A stretch of DNA of 8,598 nt, taken from IMG/VR virus record IMGVR_UViG_2671180828_000009; one strand, 5' to 3'. Positions within the stretch are counted from its first letter, which is position 1. The number at the start of each line of letters is the position of its first letter. Both the position numbers and the translations under genes were made by a program. The notes under the pieces are model-generated. The model saw only the letters and a program-made list of their open reading frames with translations. It searched no databases and was not told the origin of the DNA. This document shows positions 2,096 through 8,598 of the stretch, one piece after another. This DNA is from a virus. Its lineage: Duplodnaviria > Heunggongvirae > Uroviricota > Caudoviricetes.

Positions 2096-2996
2096 CCGTT
2101 CCTCCGTTGGTTACGCTCCACTGCGTACATGATGCCGCCTGTGTTTTGTTCAGGACCACATCCGCCAGAGGAGAAGCCAGCTCCACACGCTGCACACCCT
2201 CAACATGCAGGGCGGCAAAGATGGCGCTACGGCGAATATCCCGACCAAGACGCGTCTGACTGGCGATGTACTTCTGCAGGCTGGCTTTTGCCGCTGCCAT
2301 TACCGGCTCTGCTTCCGGTCCCGGATAGAGAAAAATGGTGGCTTCCACGCGATACGGGATGATTTCTGCGCTGCGAACCGTCAGACGGTCAGCCACCGGG
2401 CGGACGTTCTCACTGTTCAGAGCTTTTTCCACCACGTCCAGCAGGTCTTTTTCTGCAGTTCCATCGCCTTCGCGGCTAAGGACAGTCAGCACCACCTCTG
2501 CAGGTGCCGGGCTGGTTGCACTGGCATCCGCCACCCGACCGTCGGCGCTTCGGGCATGAAATTCATAAGCTGCAGTTGGCCCCGCAACTGAAAGCCCTTC
2601 AAAGGCTGCAGGCACACGCAGGCGTAACGATTCATCGCTTTCCATCACAGCTGCAACGGGCGGCACAGCGTCATTATCAGCAGGCGTCACCGTCAGGCGT
2701 TTCACGTTGTAGTTGGCAGCGATTTGGTCCAGATCGCCGCCCATCGCATAAGCCACCATCACCGCCTGCGCGGCTTCGTTAATGCGCTGGCGCAGAAGCA
2801 ACTCACGGTAAGCGTTCTCCTGCAACAATTTGGTGACGGGTTCAGATTCCAGTTCCAGCGTGCGGATCACTGCTTCCTGCTCATCTTTCGGATGAAGCGC
2901 CACAAATTCGGCCTTGCGTTCGGCAAGCAGCGTCTCAAAGTCCGGCACATCCACAATCTGCGGCGCAGGCAACTGCGAAAGGTCAATCACTGCCAT
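2088..2996 (-). CDS. J: Baseplate assembly protein J (P2 gpJ-like), about 302 aa
   Basis: The ORF track opens at 3035, but the likely start is the ATG at 2996 (MAVIDLSQLPAPQIV...), giving the expected gpJ length. Position between W and I. Overlaps the W 3' end by 14 nt and the I start by 8 nt. Confidence 0.85.
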   Translation of the reverse strand: MAVIDLSQLPAPQIVDVPDFETLLAERKAEFVALHPKDEQEAVIRTLELESEPVTKLLQENAYRELLLRQRINEAAQAVMVAYAMGGDLDQIAANYNVKRLTVTPADNDAVPPVAAVMESDESLRLRVPAAFEGLSVAGPTAAYEFHARSADGRVADASATSPAPAEVVLTVLSREGDGTAEKDLLDVVEKALNSENVRPVADRLTVRSAEIIPYRVEATIFLYPGPEAEPVMAAAKASLQKYIASQTRLGRDIRRSAIFAALHVEGVQRVELASPLADVVLNKTQAASCTQWSVTNGGTDE

Positions 2997-3342
2997 TCTC
3001 TGCTCCTGTTGATACGGAAAGGGAAACAGGCACACCGCTATTACGCCGCCCGGTCAGCTCCACCACCATTGAACCGTCAAAATTACTGTTGATGGTGATG
3101 GAATCCAGCGTCAGCCGTGGCTCCCAGCGACTCAGCGCCACATACACTGCCGACATGACCTGCAGGCGTAACGCCGGATTTTGTGGCTGGTCTATCAGTG
3201 CCGACAGCAGGGAACCATATTCCCGGCGAGCAATGCGGCTACCCTGCGGCGTCAGCAAAATGTCCCGCACCGACTGGCGCAGATGGTCAATATCAGTAAT
3301 GGCTTTACCGCTGATATTGTTCATCCCGCTATAAAGCGTCAT
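2983..3342 (-). CDS. W: Baseplate wedge protein W (gp25-like), 119 aa
   Basis: Size and sequence (MTLYSGMN..., ...REYGSLL..IDQPQNPALRLQ...WEPR...) are consistent with P2 gpW. Start ATG overlaps the upstream stop as ATGA. Confidence 0.85.
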   Translation of the reverse strand: MTLYSGMNNISGKAITDIDHLRQSVRDILLTPQGSRIARREYGSLLSALIDQPQNPALRLQVMSAVYVALSRWEPRLTLDSITINSNFDGSMVVELTGRRNSGVPVSLSVSTGAENGSD

Positions 3343-3938
3343 ACCGGGCCTCCGGTTGTATCGCCGCCTTTCAGGACGCCAGTATGCTGATGCGCATCAA
3401 CCACGATCCCGTTAGAACTCATAGCTCCGCCGCCCTGGGTAAGGCACCAGGCCATCTCCCGCGCACGGCGGTTATCCAGCCCCTGATTAAAAACACCTTT
3501 CACATAAACCCAGCGCGGCAACTGTCGGCACGCATCCGCCCAGCGCCGCTGATTGAGCAATTTCACCAGCGTGGAGCTGCAGGCATTGCCTGTCCCCACG
3601 TTGAAGGCAAATGACACCACCGCGTCATACACTTTCTGCGGCGGCTGTTGCTTCACACACCTTTCCAGCGCCCGCTCCACACGCAGCACGTTGGAGATCA
3701 GCCCTTCCGCTGCCTGTCGTTCCGTAATGGTTTTGCCTGGAATGACACCAGATGTATTACCAATGCCGTCTGTCCAGACACCCGCGCTGCACTGATACGG
3801 CTGCAGACGACAGCCTTCGTAATCGGCAATCAGTTTCAGCCCCTCCACGGAGGTGTGAAGCTGCTGAAAACCCGGCAGCGTGGCAGCAATAGCCAGCACG
3901 GCTCCGACAAGGCAGCGTTTAACGATTGATGGATTCAT
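3339..3938 (-). CDS. SAR endolysin, T4-lysozyme (GH24) family, P1 Lyz-like, with a ~30 aa C-terminal extension
   Basis: Weakly hydrophobic Gly/Ala-rich N-terminus MNPSIVKRCLVGAVLAIAATLPG followed by ...YEGCRLQPYQCSAGVWTDGIGNT..., which closely matches the recalled P1 Lyz catalytic region (EGCRRDPYMCPAGVWTDGIGNT). Start chosen at the in-frame ATG 3938 because GGGAGGA sits immediately upstream; the ORF track opens at 3965. Confidence 0.8.
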   Translation of the reverse strand: MNPSIVKRCLVGAVLAIAATLPGFQQLHTSVEGLKLIADYEGCRLQPYQCSAGVWTDGIGNTSGVIPGKTITERQAAEGLISNVLRVERALERCVKQQPPQKVYDAVVSFAFNVGTGNACSSTLVKLLNQRRWADACRQLPRWVYVKGVFNQGLDNRRAREMAWCLTQGGGAMSSNGIVVDAHQHTGVLKGGDTTGGPV

Positions 3939-4134
3939 AGTCCTCCCGCGAGATCTGCCCGTCACGCAGAAGCTGGTAGGCTTTGTGTTTGTAGTACCAG
4001 TTGATAGCCAGCATCAGCACACCAATCATCAGGCCGCCCAGCGTTGAGGCATCCTTGATGGACAAATCGCCCAGCCAGGCCAGCACGACGGCGATGCAAT
4101 ACGTGATAAAGGCGCTGATTCGCTCAAGCGTCAT
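3919..4134 (-). CDS. Class II holin (possible pinholin), 71 aa
   Basis: Two predicted transmembrane helices (ISAFITYCIAVVLAWLG and LGGLMIGVLMLAINWYY) followed by a charged C-terminal tail. Sits immediately upstream of, and overlapping, the SAR endolysin gene. Confidence 0.6.
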   Translation of the reverse strand: MTLERISAFITYCIAVVLAWLGDLSIKDASTLGGLMIGVLMLAINWYYKHKAYQLLRDGQISREDYESINR

Positions 4135-4137
4135 AAT

Positions 4138-4341
4138 TCAGTCCCATAGCTGGACGGTCTGCACGGTGGTGGTTGTCGGTATGTCCGGCAGCTCCACCTG
4201 CAACCCGTGAGGTAAAAAGGGGCCGTATTCGGCAAGCCCCGGATTTGCCTTCAGTACCTGCTCCGTGACACCCTGCGTGCGCCCGTAATGACGCCAGCAA
4301 AGCGCGTCCACCGTGTCATACTGATGCGCACGCACTTTCAT
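4138..4341 (-). CDS. X: Tail protein X (P2 gpX-like), 67 aa
   Basis: MKVRAHQYDTVDALCWRHYGRTQGVTEQVLKANPGLAEYGPFLPHGLQVELPD closely resembles recalled P2 gpX. Exact expected size and position after L. Confidence 0.85.
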   Translation of the reverse strand: MKVRAHQYDTVDALCWRHYGRTQGVTEQVLKANPGLAEYGPFLPHGLQVELPDIPTTTTVQTVQLWD

Positions 4342-4805
4342 CAGATAAGCTCCACTGTGCAGTGCGGCGCATCCTGTACCCGGCTGATGGCCCAGCGGGC
4401 GTCACGCCACAAATCACCGCTGGCTTCTGCCAGTTCCTCGCCTCGCTTCACACCCGATGCCGTGGCGTCATAGTCCTGGTATCGTTCGTTGAGCATGGCG
4501 CGTGCCCAACAATAAACCGCGTTGAAATAGTGCTGAATGCGCTCACTTTTGCCGTCCAGCTGTTCCGCCGGGACTTCTGCCAGCGACACATACCCCAGCA
4601 TCTGCTGACGTCTGCGAAACTCATACAGCTCTGCGTTGACCTCCGAAATTGCCGACAGAGCAACCTGCTTTAAACGCGGCTGCGTCACCGTGCCGTCAGT
4701 GCGCATGACACTGCGAAACTCCGACAGGTCCACATCAGGCCAGAACGGCGTATTTCTGATGATTTCCGCCTGTTCCGGTGCCTGTTCTGGCGCAACAAAC
4801 TTCAT
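4341..4805 (-). CDS. L: Head completion/stabilisation protein L (P2 gpL-like), about 154 aa
   Basis: Start assigned to ATG 4805 (MKFVAPEQ...) preceded by AGGAGA; the ORF track opens further upstream at 4868 inside a GC-rich hairpin. Position immediately before X. Confidence 0.8.
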   Translation of the reverse strand: MKFVAPEQAPEQAEIIRNTPFWPDVDLSEFRSVMRTDGTVTQPRLKQVALSAISEVNAELYEFRRRQQMLGYVSLAEVPAEQLDGKSERIQHYFNAVYCWARAMLNERYQDYDATASGVKRGEELAEASGDLWRDARWAISRVQDAPHCTVELI

Positions 4806-4818
4806 GCTGCTTTCTCCT

Positions 4819-4880
4819 GAAATAAAGGGCGGTGGACGGGGTTTTGATGTGGCAGTGCCTTTCGCCACCCCGTGCCGCCC
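4819..4880 (-). terminator. Candidate intrinsic terminator or structured element between the N remnant and L
   Basis: GC-rich imperfect stem (gggcgg..acgggg at 4828-4842 pairing with ccccgt.ccgccc at 4868-4880, ~25-nt loop) followed on the transcribed strand by CTTTATTTC just upstream of the L ribosome-binding site. Confidence 0.3.
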
Positions 4881-4900
4881 GTGCGCGGGGGCACGTTCTG

Positions 4901-5614
4901 TCAGCGGCTGTCATTGCGCAGTCTGCGCTCCAGCTGCTGTTTGTCTTTTTTCACGCCACAGCGGGGATCGAGCTGTAACGCATGGTTGAGATGATTAAGG
5001 GCAGACGCCGGATTCCCGACTTTCACTGCGCCCGGTGTGGTTTCACCGCCCGTGGTGGTGCTGCCCATGACGTGATCCGGTGCATCCTCACGGATTTTCT
5101 GCAGCCAGCCTTTGTTCACATCCTGCAGCAGCGGGTTTTCGCTACGGTTGGAGGTTTTCGCACGCTTCACGCCGTTAAAGCCGATCATGATGCGGTCCAG
5201 TGCCTGACGTTTCACGATGGCGTTACGGATACGCACCTGGAAATCCTGAAACTTCGCCCACAGGTCCAGCTTCGCGTAGGTCAGCACCGTGTCAAAGTTG
5301 GTCTGCTCGCATTTGTATTCCACATCGACCATCAGCGTCGGATCGACAGGCTCACGCTCTTTCGCGGTGGTGTCAGTGGTTCCGGCAATGGTGCTGCCAA
5401 CACCCAGCCCCAGCAACTGACCAGACTGCTCAGTCACTGGCGTGACGTTAATCAGCGTCAGGAATGCGGCGGACTGCTGGATCTGGTCTTCCAGCGTCTG
5501 CTGTACAGACGGCTCCACGGTGAACTTGCTGGACAGTTCTTCAACTGCCACACCGTTCAGACGCGCCAGCTGCTGCAGGTAAGCGTTAAAAGCAAAGCGG
5601 GTATTCTTCTTCAT
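4901..5614 (-). pseudogene. N: Major capsid protein N, 3'-truncated (237 codons versus about 350 expected)
   Basis: N-terminal ~205 aa (MKKNTRFAFNAYL...KFTVEPSV...LDLWAKFQDFQVRIRNAIVKRQALDRIMIGFNGVKRA...) look like a P2 N-family capsid protein. It follows O as expected, but the ORF is about 120 codons short, has a basic non-capsid-like tail (KKDKQQLERRLRNDSR), and no M gene lies between it and L. Confidence 0.7.
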
Positions 5615-5630: not shown

Positions 5631-6464
5631 TCAGCAATTGGTCAGAGTGTCAGCGGGGGCGTTACCGCCTGTTGCACGCTGGCGGTAGTCCTGGCGGCTG
5701 TCTTCATGGCTCAGCTTGTCCACCAGTTCGTTAAAGGCGGTCAGCTGTGCCTGCAGGGCTGTCTCCAGCTCAGACAGGCGTTCTTCCTGTTCAGACAGGG
5801 ATTTTTCGGTGCGCGCACTCAGGTTTTGCTGCTCAGTGGCGACCAGCTCCACGGCCTTATGCACATCAGAGAACCGGGCATCGTCGGACTGCTCTTTTTT
5901 GGTAAACAGCGCCGTGACACGGGCAAACAGGGACGGCTTGTCCTCCTGGATTTCTTCCAGTTCGATCACTGTTTCCTCTGCGGCGGTAAAGAGATTGGCG
6001 GGATTCTGCTTGCGGTTTGCCAGTGGGTTATGGGCTGCACTGGCGCTGAATGTCAGCATTTCAGTGCCCAGACTGGCAGGGTCATCAGTGGCAGCCAGGC
6101 CGACCAGGTAGGCTTTGCCCGTATCAGCGAACTTCGGGCTGACTTCCATAGAGGTGAATAATTTCTGGCCTTTTTTCACCAGTTCCACCAGGGACTCCGT
6201 TGGCTCAACGTCGGCATACAGCGCCATCTTGCCTGCCAGCGGACCTTCCGTGATTTCTTCAGCAAACAGCGCCGTCACCTTGCCGTAGCGGTTAAAGGTG
6301 CTGTCCGGCAGATAAGACTTGATGTGCTCAAGGTTAATCAGCGCGGTATACACCGCCGGGTTGTAGCTGGCTGCCATCTGTTCCAGCCATTCTCGCTGGA
6401 TTTCGCGTCCGTCGGTGGTGGCACCTTCCACCCCGATGCGAAAACGCTTTGCTTTCACTGTCAT
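5631..6464 (-). CDS. O: Capsid scaffolding protein O (P2 gpO-like), 277 aa
   Basis: ...FRIGVEG..DGR...INLEH...YG.V..L.AE...; ...AYLVGLAATDDPASLGTE... and C-terminal ...ATGG....D.LTNC match recalled gpO. GGAG 8 nt upstream of the ATG. Divergent from P. Confidence 0.85.
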   Translation of the reverse strand: MTVKAKRFRIGVEGATTDGREIQREWLEQMAASYNPAVYTALINLEHIKSYLPDSTFNRYGKVTALFAEEITEGPLAGKMALYADVEPTESLVELVKKGQKLFTSMEVSPKFADTGKAYLVGLAATDDPASLGTEMLTFSASAAHNPLANRKQNPANLFTAAEETVIELEEIQEDKPSLFARVTALFTKKEQSDDARFSDVHKAVELVATEQQNLSARTEKSLSEQEERLSELETALQAQLTAFNELVDKLSHEDSRQDYRQRATGGNAPADTLTNC

Positions 6465-6542
6465 GAGCCGTGCTCCGTTAGAAAAAACTTACTGGAGCCT
6501 TATGGTTGCGGTGATGGGGGCAGTGAAACAATGCGCGGTATT

Positions 6543-6560
6543 TGTACCGACAACCACACA
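6543..6560. promoter_or_regulatory. TGT-N12-ACA dyad, candidate Ogr/Delta-type late-promoter activator site (most plausibly for the O operon)
   Basis: TGTaccgacaaccacACA at 6543..6560 in the 142-bp O/P divergent intergenic region. P2-family late promoters carry this dyad centred near -55. The spacing puts a minus-strand transcription start about 30 nt upstream of the O ATG. Confidence 0.4.
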
Positions 6561-6606
6561 AACCGCAGGCGGGGAAAGCCTTCATTCAAGGCTGTAGGTT
6601 TGTGCC

Positions 6607-7578
6607 ATGAACACCACACTGACACCCGCAGATCTCGATCCCCGTCGGCAGGCCATGCTGCTGTACTTTCAGGGATACCGCGTAGCCCGCATTGCTGAAA
6701 TGCTGGGCGAGAAAGTTGCAACCGTTCACAGCTGGAAAAAACGCGACAAGTGGGGTGACTATGGGCCGCTGGATCAGATGCAGCTCACCACCGCCGCACG
6801 CTACTGCCAGCTCATCATGAAGGAGCACAAAGAAGGGAAAGATTTCAAAGAGATTGACCTGCTGGCGCGCCAGTCTGAGCGCCACGCGCGGATCGGCAAG
6901 TTTAACAATGGCGGCAACGAATCCGACTTAAACCCTAACGTCGCCAACCGCAACAAAGGCCCACGCCGTCAGCCGGAAAAGAATGTTTTCACCGATGAGC
7001 AGATTGAGAAGCTGGAAGAAATCTTCCATTCCTCCATGTTCAACTACCAGCGCCACTGGTGGGAAGCCGGAAAAACCAACCGCATCCGCAACCTGCTGAA
7101 GTCACGCCAGATCGGCGCGACCTTTTACTTTGCCCGTGAAGCCCTGATTGACGCCCTGCTGACCGGACGTAACCAGATTTTCCTTTCCGCCAGCAAGGCA
7201 CAGGCCCACGTCTTTAAGCAGTACATCATCGACTTCGCCAAAGAAGTGGAGGTGGAGTTGAAAGGCGATCCGATGGTGCTTCCTAACGGGGCCACGCTTT
7301 ACTTCCTCGGCACCAATGCCCGCACTGCCCAGAGTTATCACGGCAACCTGTATCTGGATGAATATTTCTGGATACCGAAATTCCAGGAGCTGCGCAAAGT
7401 GGCTTCCGGTATGGCTATTCACAAGAAATGGCGACAAACCTATTTTTCCACGCCATCCAGCCTGACACACAGTGCTTATCCGTTCTGGTCCGGTGCGCTA
7501 TTCAACCGTGGGCGCAACAAAGCCGATACCGCACCTGCAGCAACACGCCCGATCTCTGCGGTTGCACTCATGACGTAA
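6607..7578 (+). pseudogene. P: Terminase large subunit P, truncated (323 codons versus about 590 expected)
   Basis: N-terminal region (...[17 protein letters not shown]...[10 protein letters not shown]..., ...[17 protein letters not shown]...) is consistent with the P2 gpP N-terminal and ATPase region. The frame ends in a non-terminase-like tail overlapping the convergent cII-like gene. No portal gene Q follows. Confidence 0.75.
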
Positions 7579-7868
7579 TGTGGCAGTTTCTCTTTTGCCA
7601 CCTCATTAATTGGTACGCATGGCAGGCAGTGAATCTGTGCCAGAAAACCATCTACCAACGTTGAATCTTCAGTCAGATCGGTAAGCAGCCAGATTTCTGG
7701 TGCGGTTAATAAATGAGGTTGAGCTGGGTTCAGCTTGTTCCGCAGAATCTGCACATTCATGCCCGCACGTTCTGCCAGTTGCACCAGATTGTGGCGCAGT
7801 GCGAATGCACGACAGGCTTCATCAAAATGTGGATGTTTGGAAACTTGGTAATCAAACATGGTTTTCAA
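7476..7868 (-). CDS. cII: Phage CII-like regulatory protein (186 CII / CP76 family), probably 3'-truncated
   Basis: [45 protein letters not shown]...[25 protein letters not shown] matches the recalled CP76/CII family N-terminal region. The real start may be M4 at 7859. 130 aa versus about 165-170 for family members. Confidence 0.65.
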
Positions 7869-7873
7869 CTCCG

Positions 7874-7915
7874 AACTTATCGCAAAATCGAACTCAGCGT
7901 CTTATTGCGAAAATA
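7874..7915. promoter_or_regulatory. Paired repeats in the apl-cII intergenic region
   Basis: CTTATCGCAAAAT (7875-7887) and CTTATTGCGAAAAT (7901-7914) form a direct repeat about 26 bp apart; they contain the inverted hexamers TCGCAA / TTGCGA. Confidence 0.25.
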
Positions 7916-7923
7916 GACGTCTA

Positions 7924-8127
7924 TTAAGCAGACAAAGCATCAACAGTCAGAGCAGCCAGGTTAATCATTACCTTTTCACGTTTTTTGTCTTTACGAAGAC
8001 GATGACGAGGTAGTCGGCCATCAGCCAACATGTCGTTAATCGTATCAATAGAAAGGCCAGTCAGTTCGCTATAACGTTCGATTGTGACATGTGGTGTATT
8101 CAGAGTAATTGAAATGTTAGGTGTCAT
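7924..8127 (-). CDS. Small helix-turn-helix DNA-binding protein, Apl/Cox-like excisionase-regulator, 67 aa
   Basis: ...[27 protein letters not shown]... is an excisionase-type HTH. First gene of the leftward operon, divergent from cI and upstream of cII, as apl is in 186. Confidence 0.5.
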
Positions 8128-8272
8128 AAGGCAACATTCCTTCTAGATATGGCTTGTGGCGAGCCGTTGTTTGTCGTGATTAGTAGTGAAGGCTCCAAAA
8201 GAACACTTCTGGTTCAACTTTAAGATCGCTTTTGGAATCTGTCAACGAATTTTGGATTTCTTTGGAGGACTT
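8128..8272. promoter_or_regulatory. Immunity switch region between the divergent apl-like and cI genes
   Basis: 145-bp intergenic region. Perfect 8-bp inverted repeat TCCAAAAG (8194-8201) / CTTTTGGA (8229-8236) with further TTTGGA copies at 8251 and 8261. GGAGG at 8264-8268 ahead of the cI GTG. No promoter hexamers could be placed confidently. Confidence 0.4.
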
Positions 8273-8598
8273 GTGGATTTCAATAGCGGCGGTAAGAAAG
8301 CCATAGAACGTTTAGTTGAAGCATATGGGTTCGGTACCCGTCAGGCTCTCTGTGATCATTTAGGTGTTTCTAAGAGCACCATGGCAACGCGCTATATGCG
8401 TGATATTTTTCCAGCAGATTGGGTAATCCAGTGCGCCCTTGAAACGGGCACCTCGCTTAATTGGCTAACAACAGGGCATGGTTCAAAGCAAGCATCAGCA
8501 AATACAAATACTATAGAAGTAGAAAAATATTTATTGTCTGATGGAGCATTGCAGAAAGACGGTTTTTATATTTTTGATAAGGGATTTCTACCCTCTAC
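8273..8598 (+). CDS. cI: CI-family repressor (186 CI-like N-terminal HTH domain), 5' part only
   Basis: Open frame from GTG 8273 to the window edge: VDFNSGGKKAIERLVEAYGFGTRQALCDHLGVSKSTMATRYMRDIFPADWVIQCALETGTSLNWLTTGHG..., matching the 186 CI-type HTH pattern. Not in the ORF track because it has a non-ATG start and no stop within the window. Confidence 0.7.
   Translation, partial: MDFNSGGKKAIERLVEAYGFGTRQALCDHLGVSKSTMATRYMRDIFPADWVIQCALETGTSLNWLTTGHGSKQASANTNTIEVEKYLLSDGALQKDGFYIFDKGFLPS

Follow-up and report, generated by a model that had tools for sequence, protein, structure and literature searches.

An in-frame fusion of a SAR lysozyme to the apex of the gpV spike, very probably a deletion scar in a defective P2-like prophage of Escherichia coli

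P1 Lyz is the prototype SAR endolysin and is activated by disulfide isomerization. Studies of spanin mutants show that lysis without a spanin is inefficient unless shear is applied, and in P2-type baseplates the apex of the spike protein gpV normally forms the tip of a trimeric β-helix. In phage KP12, a cassette with a P1 Lyz-like SAR endolysin and overlapped i- and o-spanins has been described in a P2-type arrangement (PMC9902359). A SAR endolysin cassette of a P2-type phage is already known from that work, and the locus described here presents no new lysis system. The closest intact phage among the matches listed for this locus is Escherichia phage Cartapus (NC_070909, Peduoviridae, Elveevirus), which carries, in order, X, holin, endolysin (171 aa), LysB, R, S, an orphan ORF on the other strand, V and W.

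The window, by which we mean the whole 8598-bp stretch of DNA that was analysed, is the entire draft contig CDQN01000172.1 of E. coli assembly GCA_000938575.1. According to its ORF list, all of its structural genes lie on the minus strand; along the direction of transcription they run O, truncated N, L, X, holin, endolysin ORF, W, J, I and H, and these assignments were confirmed one by one by Pfam profile search. The features that bear on the argument are the following:

7525-7528, no strand assigned: cII/P junction (blastn of the remnant contig L002 against full Cartapus)
5631-6464, minus strand: scaffold gene O (Pfam)
4901-5614, minus strand: capsid gene N, truncated (Pfam)
5012-5014, minus strand: N::M junction (blastn, junction alignment, translations)
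4341-4868, minus strand: head-completion gene L (Pfam)
4138-4341, minus strand: tail gene X, intact, 67 aa (PF05489, E 2.2e-34)
3919-4134, minus strand: holin gene, 71 aa (PF16080 Phage_holin_2_3, HP1 family, E 4.3e-9)
3339-3965, minus strand: ORF of the endolysin::V' fusion, 199 aa from the ATG at 3938
3441-3938, minus strand: endolysin-derived part, residues 1-166 (PF00959)
3440-3442, minus strand: endolysin/V deletion junction, TTA common to both parents (blastn and three-way alignment)
3339-3440, minus strand: V-derived part, the last 33 V codons and the stop (PF18946)
2983-3342, minus strand: baseplate wedge gene W, intact, 119 aa (PF04965)

X lies directly upstream of the holin gene, an adjacency shared by synteny with P2 and Cartapus, and W differs from its Cartapus counterpart at two residues. 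The original prediction, made from the DNA alone, had described this interval as a two-gene lysis cassette placed before W with R, S, V and any spanin missing. The search between X and W agrees: it returned no R, S, spanin, V N-terminal domain or complete V, and the last 33 codons of V are all that is left of these genes.

The holin is the 71-aa, two-helix protein that had been predicted. It scores 36.7 bits against PF16080 (curated cut-off 28.8) and stays below threshold for the phage 21 S family (PF04971, 23.2 bits against a cut-off of 26). Hydropathy places its two hydrophobic helices at about residues 6-24 and 31-48 (windows ~1-28 and ~24-48), and its charged C-terminus reads KHKAYQLLRDGQISREDYESINR, so that it has all the marks of the HP1-family class II holin profile: small, two-helix, charged at the C-terminus and encoded just upstream of an adjoining endolysin. 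The 3' end of the gene overlaps the endolysin start by 20 nt, as it does in intact relatives, including the Cartapus counterpart at positions 7141-7356 of the Cartapus sequence L011. Its pairing with a SAR endolysin suggests that this holin may form small pinholes, as opposed to large holes.

The endolysin starts at the ATG at 3938, which is preceded by GGGAGGACT, and the product is 199 aa long. A GTG start at 3965, giving 208 aa, was rejected on Shine-Dalgarno grounds and on the annotation of relatives; this longer reading is absent from the records, whereas the exact 199-aa protein is recorded. The enzyme contains a complete GH24 domain (PF00959 Phage_lysozyme, E 4.4e-40, 125/125 profile positions covered), its best PDB match is P1 Lyz (1XJT, E 1.8e-26), and tblastn aligns it with P1 Lyz at 37% identity over 93% of the query. 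Residues 41-56, EGCRLQPYQCSAGVWT, align column by column with EGCRRDPYMCPAGVWT of P1 Lyz and spell the motif E41-x-C43-x6-C50-x5-T56, within which the Glu-x8-Cys/Asp-x5-Thr triad is present. We take this E-x-C-x6-C-x5-T motif to be equivalent to E42/C44/C51/T57 of P1 Lyz (numbering of Xu et al. 2005). Residues ~1-28 are hydrophobic (~3867-3926; Kyte-Doolittle 19-residue means 1.2-1.64) and include Cys9, while the SAR-like segment CLVGAVLAIAATLPGFQ is 41% Gly/Ala/Ser/Thr. Cys9, Cys43 and Cys50 are invariant across 13 aligned relatives, and we infer for them, after P1 Lyz, a regulatory role. The domain match, the 1XJT match, the motif and Cys9 together support, at the level of sequence, the P1 Lyz-like SAR endolysin of the original prediction.

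Where the window enzyme departs from its relatives is the C-terminus. Twelve aligned related lysozymes are 169-171 aa long, end in ...AWCLKGAGL or ...AWCLQGAN and have no tail. The window enzyme is the same as these through ...REMAWCL166, then continues for 33 more residues; the fusion retains endolysin residues 1-166 of a protein normally 170-171 aa long, with the last 5 residues lost. The added stretch after L166 is TQGGGAMSSNGIVVDAHQHTGVLKGGDTTGGPV, followed directly by the stop codon, and its V-derived part starts at T167 (TQGGGAMSS...). An extra C-terminal piece had been noticed beforehand and is real, although the count of about 30 given for it was slightly short, and the accompanying suggestion that it remains from the 3' end of a gene otherwise deleted holds, that gene being V. 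Residues 167-199 are the C-terminal 33 residues of gpV, the baseplate spike protein: the final 23 (186-208 of the 208-aa reading) match Pfam PF18946 GpV Apex at 27.6 bits against a curated cut-off of 20.8 (E 3e-6), which by this measure appears far beyond chance, and the whole tail is identical at 32/33 positions to the C-terminus of Cartapus gpV and at 33/33 to V of another E. coli prophage (L009). It likewise aligns with the P2 gpV C-terminus GGELSSNGKVLHTHKHPGDSGGTTGSPL at residues ~181-210 (solved structure 3QR8; BLASTP E 7e-6). The tail contains the HxH apex motif of gpV-type spikes. This stretch corresponds to the iron-binding HxH apex of P2 gpV (Browning et al. 2012). Pfam found no match to the V OB-fold, PF04717, in any window ORF scanned; in Cartapus V this domain covers residues 17-84. 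Because only the last 33 V codons are left, no spike protein is encoded.

Nothing is missing from the catalytic domain, the SAR-like segment or the putative regulatory cysteines, and for this reason the fusion probably keeps muralytic activity, with the 33-residue apex fragment most likely an inert passenger. An AlphaFold2 single-sequence model of the fusion has a mean pLDDT of 40.5, too poor to judge whether the apex tail is disordered.

The TGA of the fusion gene and the start of W overlap as ATGA at 3342-3339, the coupling that had been read from the sequence beforehand. The overlap sequence GGTATGACG is the same in the window and in Cartapus, where it joins V to W; W thus owes its ATGA coupling to V, again as had been proposed. 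W would now be translationally coupled to the endolysin::V' fusion rather than to V.

Comparison of the window with Cartapus by blastn gave three collinear blocks of about 96-97% identity:

window 7528-5013 corresponds to Cartapus (L001) 2374-4889
window 5027-3440 corresponds to Cartapus (L001) 5878-7461
window 3449-436 corresponds to Cartapus (L001) 9974-12988

Adjoining in the window, the endolysin and V-W blocks are separated by 2.5 kb in Cartapus. Written on the minus strand with a slash at the breakpoint, the sequences are ...GGCCTGGTGCCTTA/CCCAGGGCGGCGGAGC... in the window, ...TGGTGCCTTA/AAGGAGC in the endolysin parent and ...TGGTGGCGTTA/CCCAGGGC in the V parent. The TTA microhomology (3440-3442) sits in an imperfect 10-11-nt repeat, TGGTGCCTTA at the endolysin 3' end and TGGTGGCGTTA in V; its length is read from intact references ~97% identical to the window, no direct ancestor with identical flanks having been recovered. 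A TTA placed in this way within an imperfect repeat reads as the signature of illegitimate deletion, whether slippage or microhomology-mediated.

In Cartapus the deleted interval (L011 7836-10347, about 2.5 kb) runs from the final 5 codons of the endolysin gene through LysB, LysC, R, S, the orphan ORF and the V promoter region, and takes in codons 1-159 of V. LysB is annotated there as an Rz-like i-spanin and is overlapped by a LysC-like lipoprotein ORF with the lipobox LLTLSGC (L011 8120-8410); gpR (PF06891), gpS (PF05069), the OB-fold part of V and, on the other strand, the orphan ORF (gp14) are encoded in the same interval. The two-component arrangement of an i-spanin ORF and a lipobox ORF after the endolysin is not present in the window, where W follows directly. 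A six-frame lipobox scan covering both strands of the window yielded no credible spanin, consistent with the absence noted in the original prediction: the only hits were antisense ORFs inside known genes with no plausible signal peptide, and they were rejected on both counts.

The interval also holds regulatory sequence. An Ogr-type dyad, TGT-N12-ACA, occurs at Cartapus L011 9817, and the equivalent P2 interval is annotated with the O-operon terminator, an activator site and the pV promoter. The window still has an Ogr-type dyad between P and O (6543-6560). From these positions, W-J-I-H would be left without a late promoter of their own and be fused to the O operon.

The endolysin::V' junction is not the only lesion. 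A 56.9-kb Logan contig (L002) carries the full remnant, about 14.7 kb from int to ogr, flanked by TetR-family, MFS and HAD-hydrolase genes on one side and by Asp-Al_Ex and YbjM-family genes on the other. From this Pfam content and the K-12 map, we take the flanks to be the E. coli rcdA (ybjK) and ybjL loci. No Q, M, R, S, V, E/E', T or U and none of the replication genes occur between int and ogr in the remnant; ogr, cI and int are kept, and truncation or fusion has affected P, N, FII, D and cII. Three further deletions account for junctions at cII/P, N::M and FII::D. At N::M, N residues 1-206 continue in frame into the last 31 M codons with about 1 kb lost, and the Pfam capsid profile of N is covered at 1-189 of 327 positions. 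At cII/P, a truncated cII-like gene on the minus strand is joined to the interior of the terminase gene P on the plus strand (profile coverage 1-111 of 146 for cII and 1-166 of 215 for Terminase_6N); between the corresponding points a Cartapus-type genome has the replication genes, cos and the portal gene. At FII(1-159)::D, which lies outside the window (L002 16775-18043), E, E', T and U are lost. Those retained genes that were compared equal their Cartapus counterparts in length and have no frameshifts. The gene order is P2-like, but the complete essential gene set of a functional P2-like prophage is not present, and judged by its gene content the element is a defective remnant that would be unable to form particles. 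The absence of R, S, V and spanin, on the same reading, is one of four deletions in a defective prophage and not the architecture of a lineage.

We consider it very probable, from these comparisons, that the region is a deletion scar left by ordinary decay of a defective P2-like (Peduoviridae, Elveevirus-like) E. coli prophage. The ancestor would have had the order X, holin, SAR endolysin, LysB/LysC spanin, R, S, orphan ORF, P_V late promoter, V and W, with the holin and endolysin as the lineage's own lysis genes. One illegitimate recombination between the short imperfect repeats, near the endolysin gene end and 33 codons before the V end, would have removed about 2.5 kb. It happened to be in frame. 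The 199-aa product would combine a complete SAR lysozyme of the P1 Lyz type, short of 5 residues at its end, with the 33-residue spike apex, and the event would have retained the native ATGA overlap of V with W. With the O-operon end and the V promoter region lost, transcripts of W-J-I-H would come solely from the O promoter, by read-through. Should the late operon ever be activated, the holin and the fusion enzyme would still degrade the wall, and any disruption of the outer membrane would have to be spanin-independent.

One feature is not predicted by neutral decay, namely that all the fusions are in frame, and it invites the thought that the host keeps an Ogr-inducible holin and SAR-endolysin operon for some use. 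Such a module could serve in suicide lysis as abortive infection upon trans-activation by a P2-like phage or P4, or in the release of cell contents, and the tail might give the enzyme some additional property; if this were true, the holin and SAR endolysin would be trans-activated by incoming P2-like phages or P4-type satellites. The same-strand deletions are in frame in 3/3 cases (N::M, endolysin::V' and FII::D) where chance would give this about once in 27, but the tally of 3 or 4 is small and was made post hoc. Strain 01G17CRGN001 has a lysozyme::V' fusion of independent origin, likewise in frame and with its ATGA to W preserved; the retained genes are of Cartapus length without frameshifts, and ogr, cI and int persist, together with an Ogr-type dyad in the promoter region of P/O (6543-6560). 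Against this, the fusion is limited to a few contigs of 100% identity, resembling one recent clone, and a lysozyme-V deletion is seen in 5/1043 complete E. coli genomes that carry this lysozyme, one of these lineages not being a fusion. We regard a domesticated module as very improbable on this evidence, and likewise the narrower form of the idea, a remnant under selection in which in-frame deletions that preserve translational coupling keep an Ogr/delta-inducible late operon translatable as a spanin-less suicide module. The in-frame fusions leave our verdict of ordinary decay unchanged.

The distribution of the fusion bears on this. The exact 199-aa protein is recorded on 6 contigs in a cluster look-up and on 12 in a contig look-up, and its protein cluster has 1753 members, those listed being mostly 169-171 aa long. 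Seven loci were retrieved, from GCA_000938575.1, GCA_000939695.1 and four Logan assemblies of separate sequencing runs; they are 100% identical to the window, with one at 99.98%, which indicates that the carriers may be taken as a single recent clone. The window junction occurs in 0/5426 complete E. coli genomes, and no exact match to the junction 33-mer was found across the GTDB species-representative genomes, a result consistent with what would be expected of a rare strain-level variant. The lysozyme and V halves are adjacent in 5/1043 complete E. coli genomes that carry this lysozyme, and three different breakpoints, the window's included, are seen in the lysozyme-V interval. We considered whether this interval is a deletion hot spot; with 5/1043 genomes and three breakpoints, the case is unconvincing.

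A native architecture, in which holin and endolysin stand directly before W, R, S, V and spanin are encoded elsewhere and the endolysin tail is normal, would have accommodated the in-frame fusion and the otherwise intact retained genes, and has no other support. The 25 top-listed phage records, Cartapus, 500465-1, 4LV2017 and KP12 among them, match the query only to base 1456-1461, plus a second, separate matching place, and no record has ≥80% of the query in one place. In two intact relatives, Cartapus and the prophage of CE10, the annotation has the endolysin followed by LysB, R, S and V; the 12 aligned lysozymes of 169-171 aa lack the tail; and on L002 no R, S or V occurs anywhere from int to ogr, with P, N, FII and D truncated. 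Together with the junction's absence from all 5426 complete genomes, these observations leave this reading effectively refuted, with hardly any probability. An assembly artefact, a collapse or chimera joining endolysin and V reads, could be imagined for a short contig of a draft assembly in which the sequence occurs on another contig too (L003 and L006), but it is excluded for practical purposes by the recurrence of the same junctions at 100% (99.98% at one locus) in GCA_000939695.1 and four separately sequenced Logan assemblies, one carrier being the 56.9-kb contig with chromosomal flanks, while the 3 nt of exact homology at the junction are too little for repeat collapse.

With the deletion scar as the preferred reading, the appropriate annotation for the protein is that of a lysozyme::gpV' fusion belonging to a defective prophage; its annotation as a new endolysin architecture, or of the region as a new P2-family genome plan, is unwarranted. 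The remnant offers a clean case of decay by a few large microhomology-mediated deletions without frameshift or nonsense lesions. Its significance beyond annotation is little, the in-frame fusions being a small curiosity.

One claim of the original prediction did not survive comparison with relatives: that the cassette is foreign to a P2 backbone. The X-holin-endolysin-LysB position is occupied by the same cassette in at least 33 phage records at 95-99% DNA identity, the phages listed including Escherichia and Klebsiella P2-like phages, and it is found in E. coli prophages as well. GC across 3000-4600 is flat at 0.56-0.59, and on these two grounds a foreign insertion was rejected for this Peduoviridae lineage. 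The shared position, the flat GC and the description of KP12 together point to the holin and endolysin as the native lysis module of the Elveevirus-like lineage, with no recent insertion.

Cartapus, Escherichia phage 500465-1 and the Klebsiella phages 4LV2017 and KP12 share ~96-97% DNA identity with the window over O, N, L, X, holin, endolysin, W, J, I and most of H, and Cartapus and its relatives have the same gene order, holin/endolysin overlap and V/W ATGA. Cartapus differs in possessing L011 7836-10347, some 1 kb of N/M sequence and the whole stretch from cII to mid-P. Deletions in other E. coli strains resemble that of the window in kind: in N73, N137, N169 and N196 an independent event has left an intact lysozyme followed by a 5'-truncated V, which is not a fusion, while 01G17CRGN001 carries an independent in-frame fusion of lysozyme(1-155) to the last 6 aa of V with the ATGA to W kept. 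The CE10 prophage has the same immunity region and a truncated cII beside an IS3 element. All of these differ from the window in their breakpoints and chromosomal sites, and none has its junction.

P2 itself (NC_001895) is alike in backbone synteny, with L, X and lysis genes followed by W, J and I. Its full order is X-Y-K-lysA-lysB-lysC-R-S-orf30-V-W, whereas the window is without lysA/B/C, R, S, orf30 and V. P2 K showed no significant similarity to the window endolysin, and P2 Y, at 93 aa, is only weakly similar to the holin (28% over 54 aa); by these comparisons the cassette is non-orthologous to P2 Y/K. P1 Lyz (PDB 1XJT/1XJU) shares with the window enzyme the GH24 fold family, an N-terminal hydrophobic segment with a Cys and the catalytic/Cys motif, while it differs in being about 37% identical and in lacking the 33-residue gpV apex fragment that the window enzyme carries.

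Besides the endolysin-to-V deletion, the remnant carries gene fusions and other features of note at the following positions, in window coordinates or, where stated, in those of L002, a 56.9-kb Logan contig that holds the whole remnant from int to ogr:

4901-5614, minus strand: in-frame N::M fusion, the capsid gene N joined to the last 31 codons of the terminase small-subunit gene M, with its junction at 5012-5014
L002 16775-18043, outside the window: in-frame FII::D fusion, in which tail tube FII(1-159) continues into D to give 422 aa; the fourth deletion of the remnant
7476-7578: cII-like gene (minus strand, truncated) joined to the interior of the terminase gene P (plus strand), with the junction at 7525-7528
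7600-8598: immunity region, with the cII-like gene, a 67-aa ORF and the start of the CI repressor at the contig end
54-1493, minus strand: tail fibre gene H, its 3' part within 1-600
L002 14348-15379, opposite strand: Acyl_transf_3 (PF01757) gene between the tail-fibre assembly gene and the sheath gene FI
6543-6560: Ogr-type dyad TGTACCGACAACCACACA (TGT-N12-ACA) in the divergent P/O promoter region, kept in the remnant

The N::M deletion removed about 1 kb, and its junction is marked by AA, adjoining an imperfect AGTGAAAGT repeat. Through the FII::D deletion E, E', T and U are gone; because this fusion is in frame as well, all three same-strand deletions of the remnant preserve the reading frame (chance about 1/27).

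The cII/P junction joins genes of opposite strands: the two ORFs each extend into the antisense of the other, giving an overlap of about 100 nt. The two points joined here are separated, in a genome of the type of Escherichia phage Cartapus, an intact relative, by the replication genes, cos and the portal gene. The adjoining immunity region has a lower GC content (0.42-0.45), and its 67-aa ORF (7924-8127) has no Pfam match.

At the other end of the window, GC drops to 0.35-0.43 in the 3' part of H, and similarity to Cartapus ends at position 436. At its C-terminal tip the tail fibre has a different, low-GC module, which suggests that the tip has been swapped. The Acyl_transf_3 gene is likely a cargo gene; Cartapus has, in that position, a tail-fibre segment that can invert, together with a DNA invertase.

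Two contigs of GCA_000938575.1 (CDQN01000172.1 and CDQN01000811.1) contain copies of the region that are 100% identical, which suggests redundant draft-assembly contigs rather than two prophage copies.

The Cartapus equivalent of the Ogr-type dyad, upstream of V (position 9817 of the Cartapus locus), falls within the segment deleted from the window. The prophage of E. coli CE10 has an immunity region (L012 24512-25922) about 97% identical to that of the window, with cII truncated there too; this prophage is integrated differently and disrupted by IS3. Other E. coli prophages, too, have lost DNA from the lysozyme-to-V interval, through independent deletions. Strain 01G17CRGN001 (L010 8663-9148) has an in-frame fusion of lysozyme(1-155) to the last 6 aa of V, with the ATGA to W kept. 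In N196 and its sister strains (L009 8663-9664), V is 5'-truncated and the lysozyme is whole. The J gene of the N196 prophage is also cut short, adjoining the truncated gene for an arginine-binding protein that lies upstream of artM.
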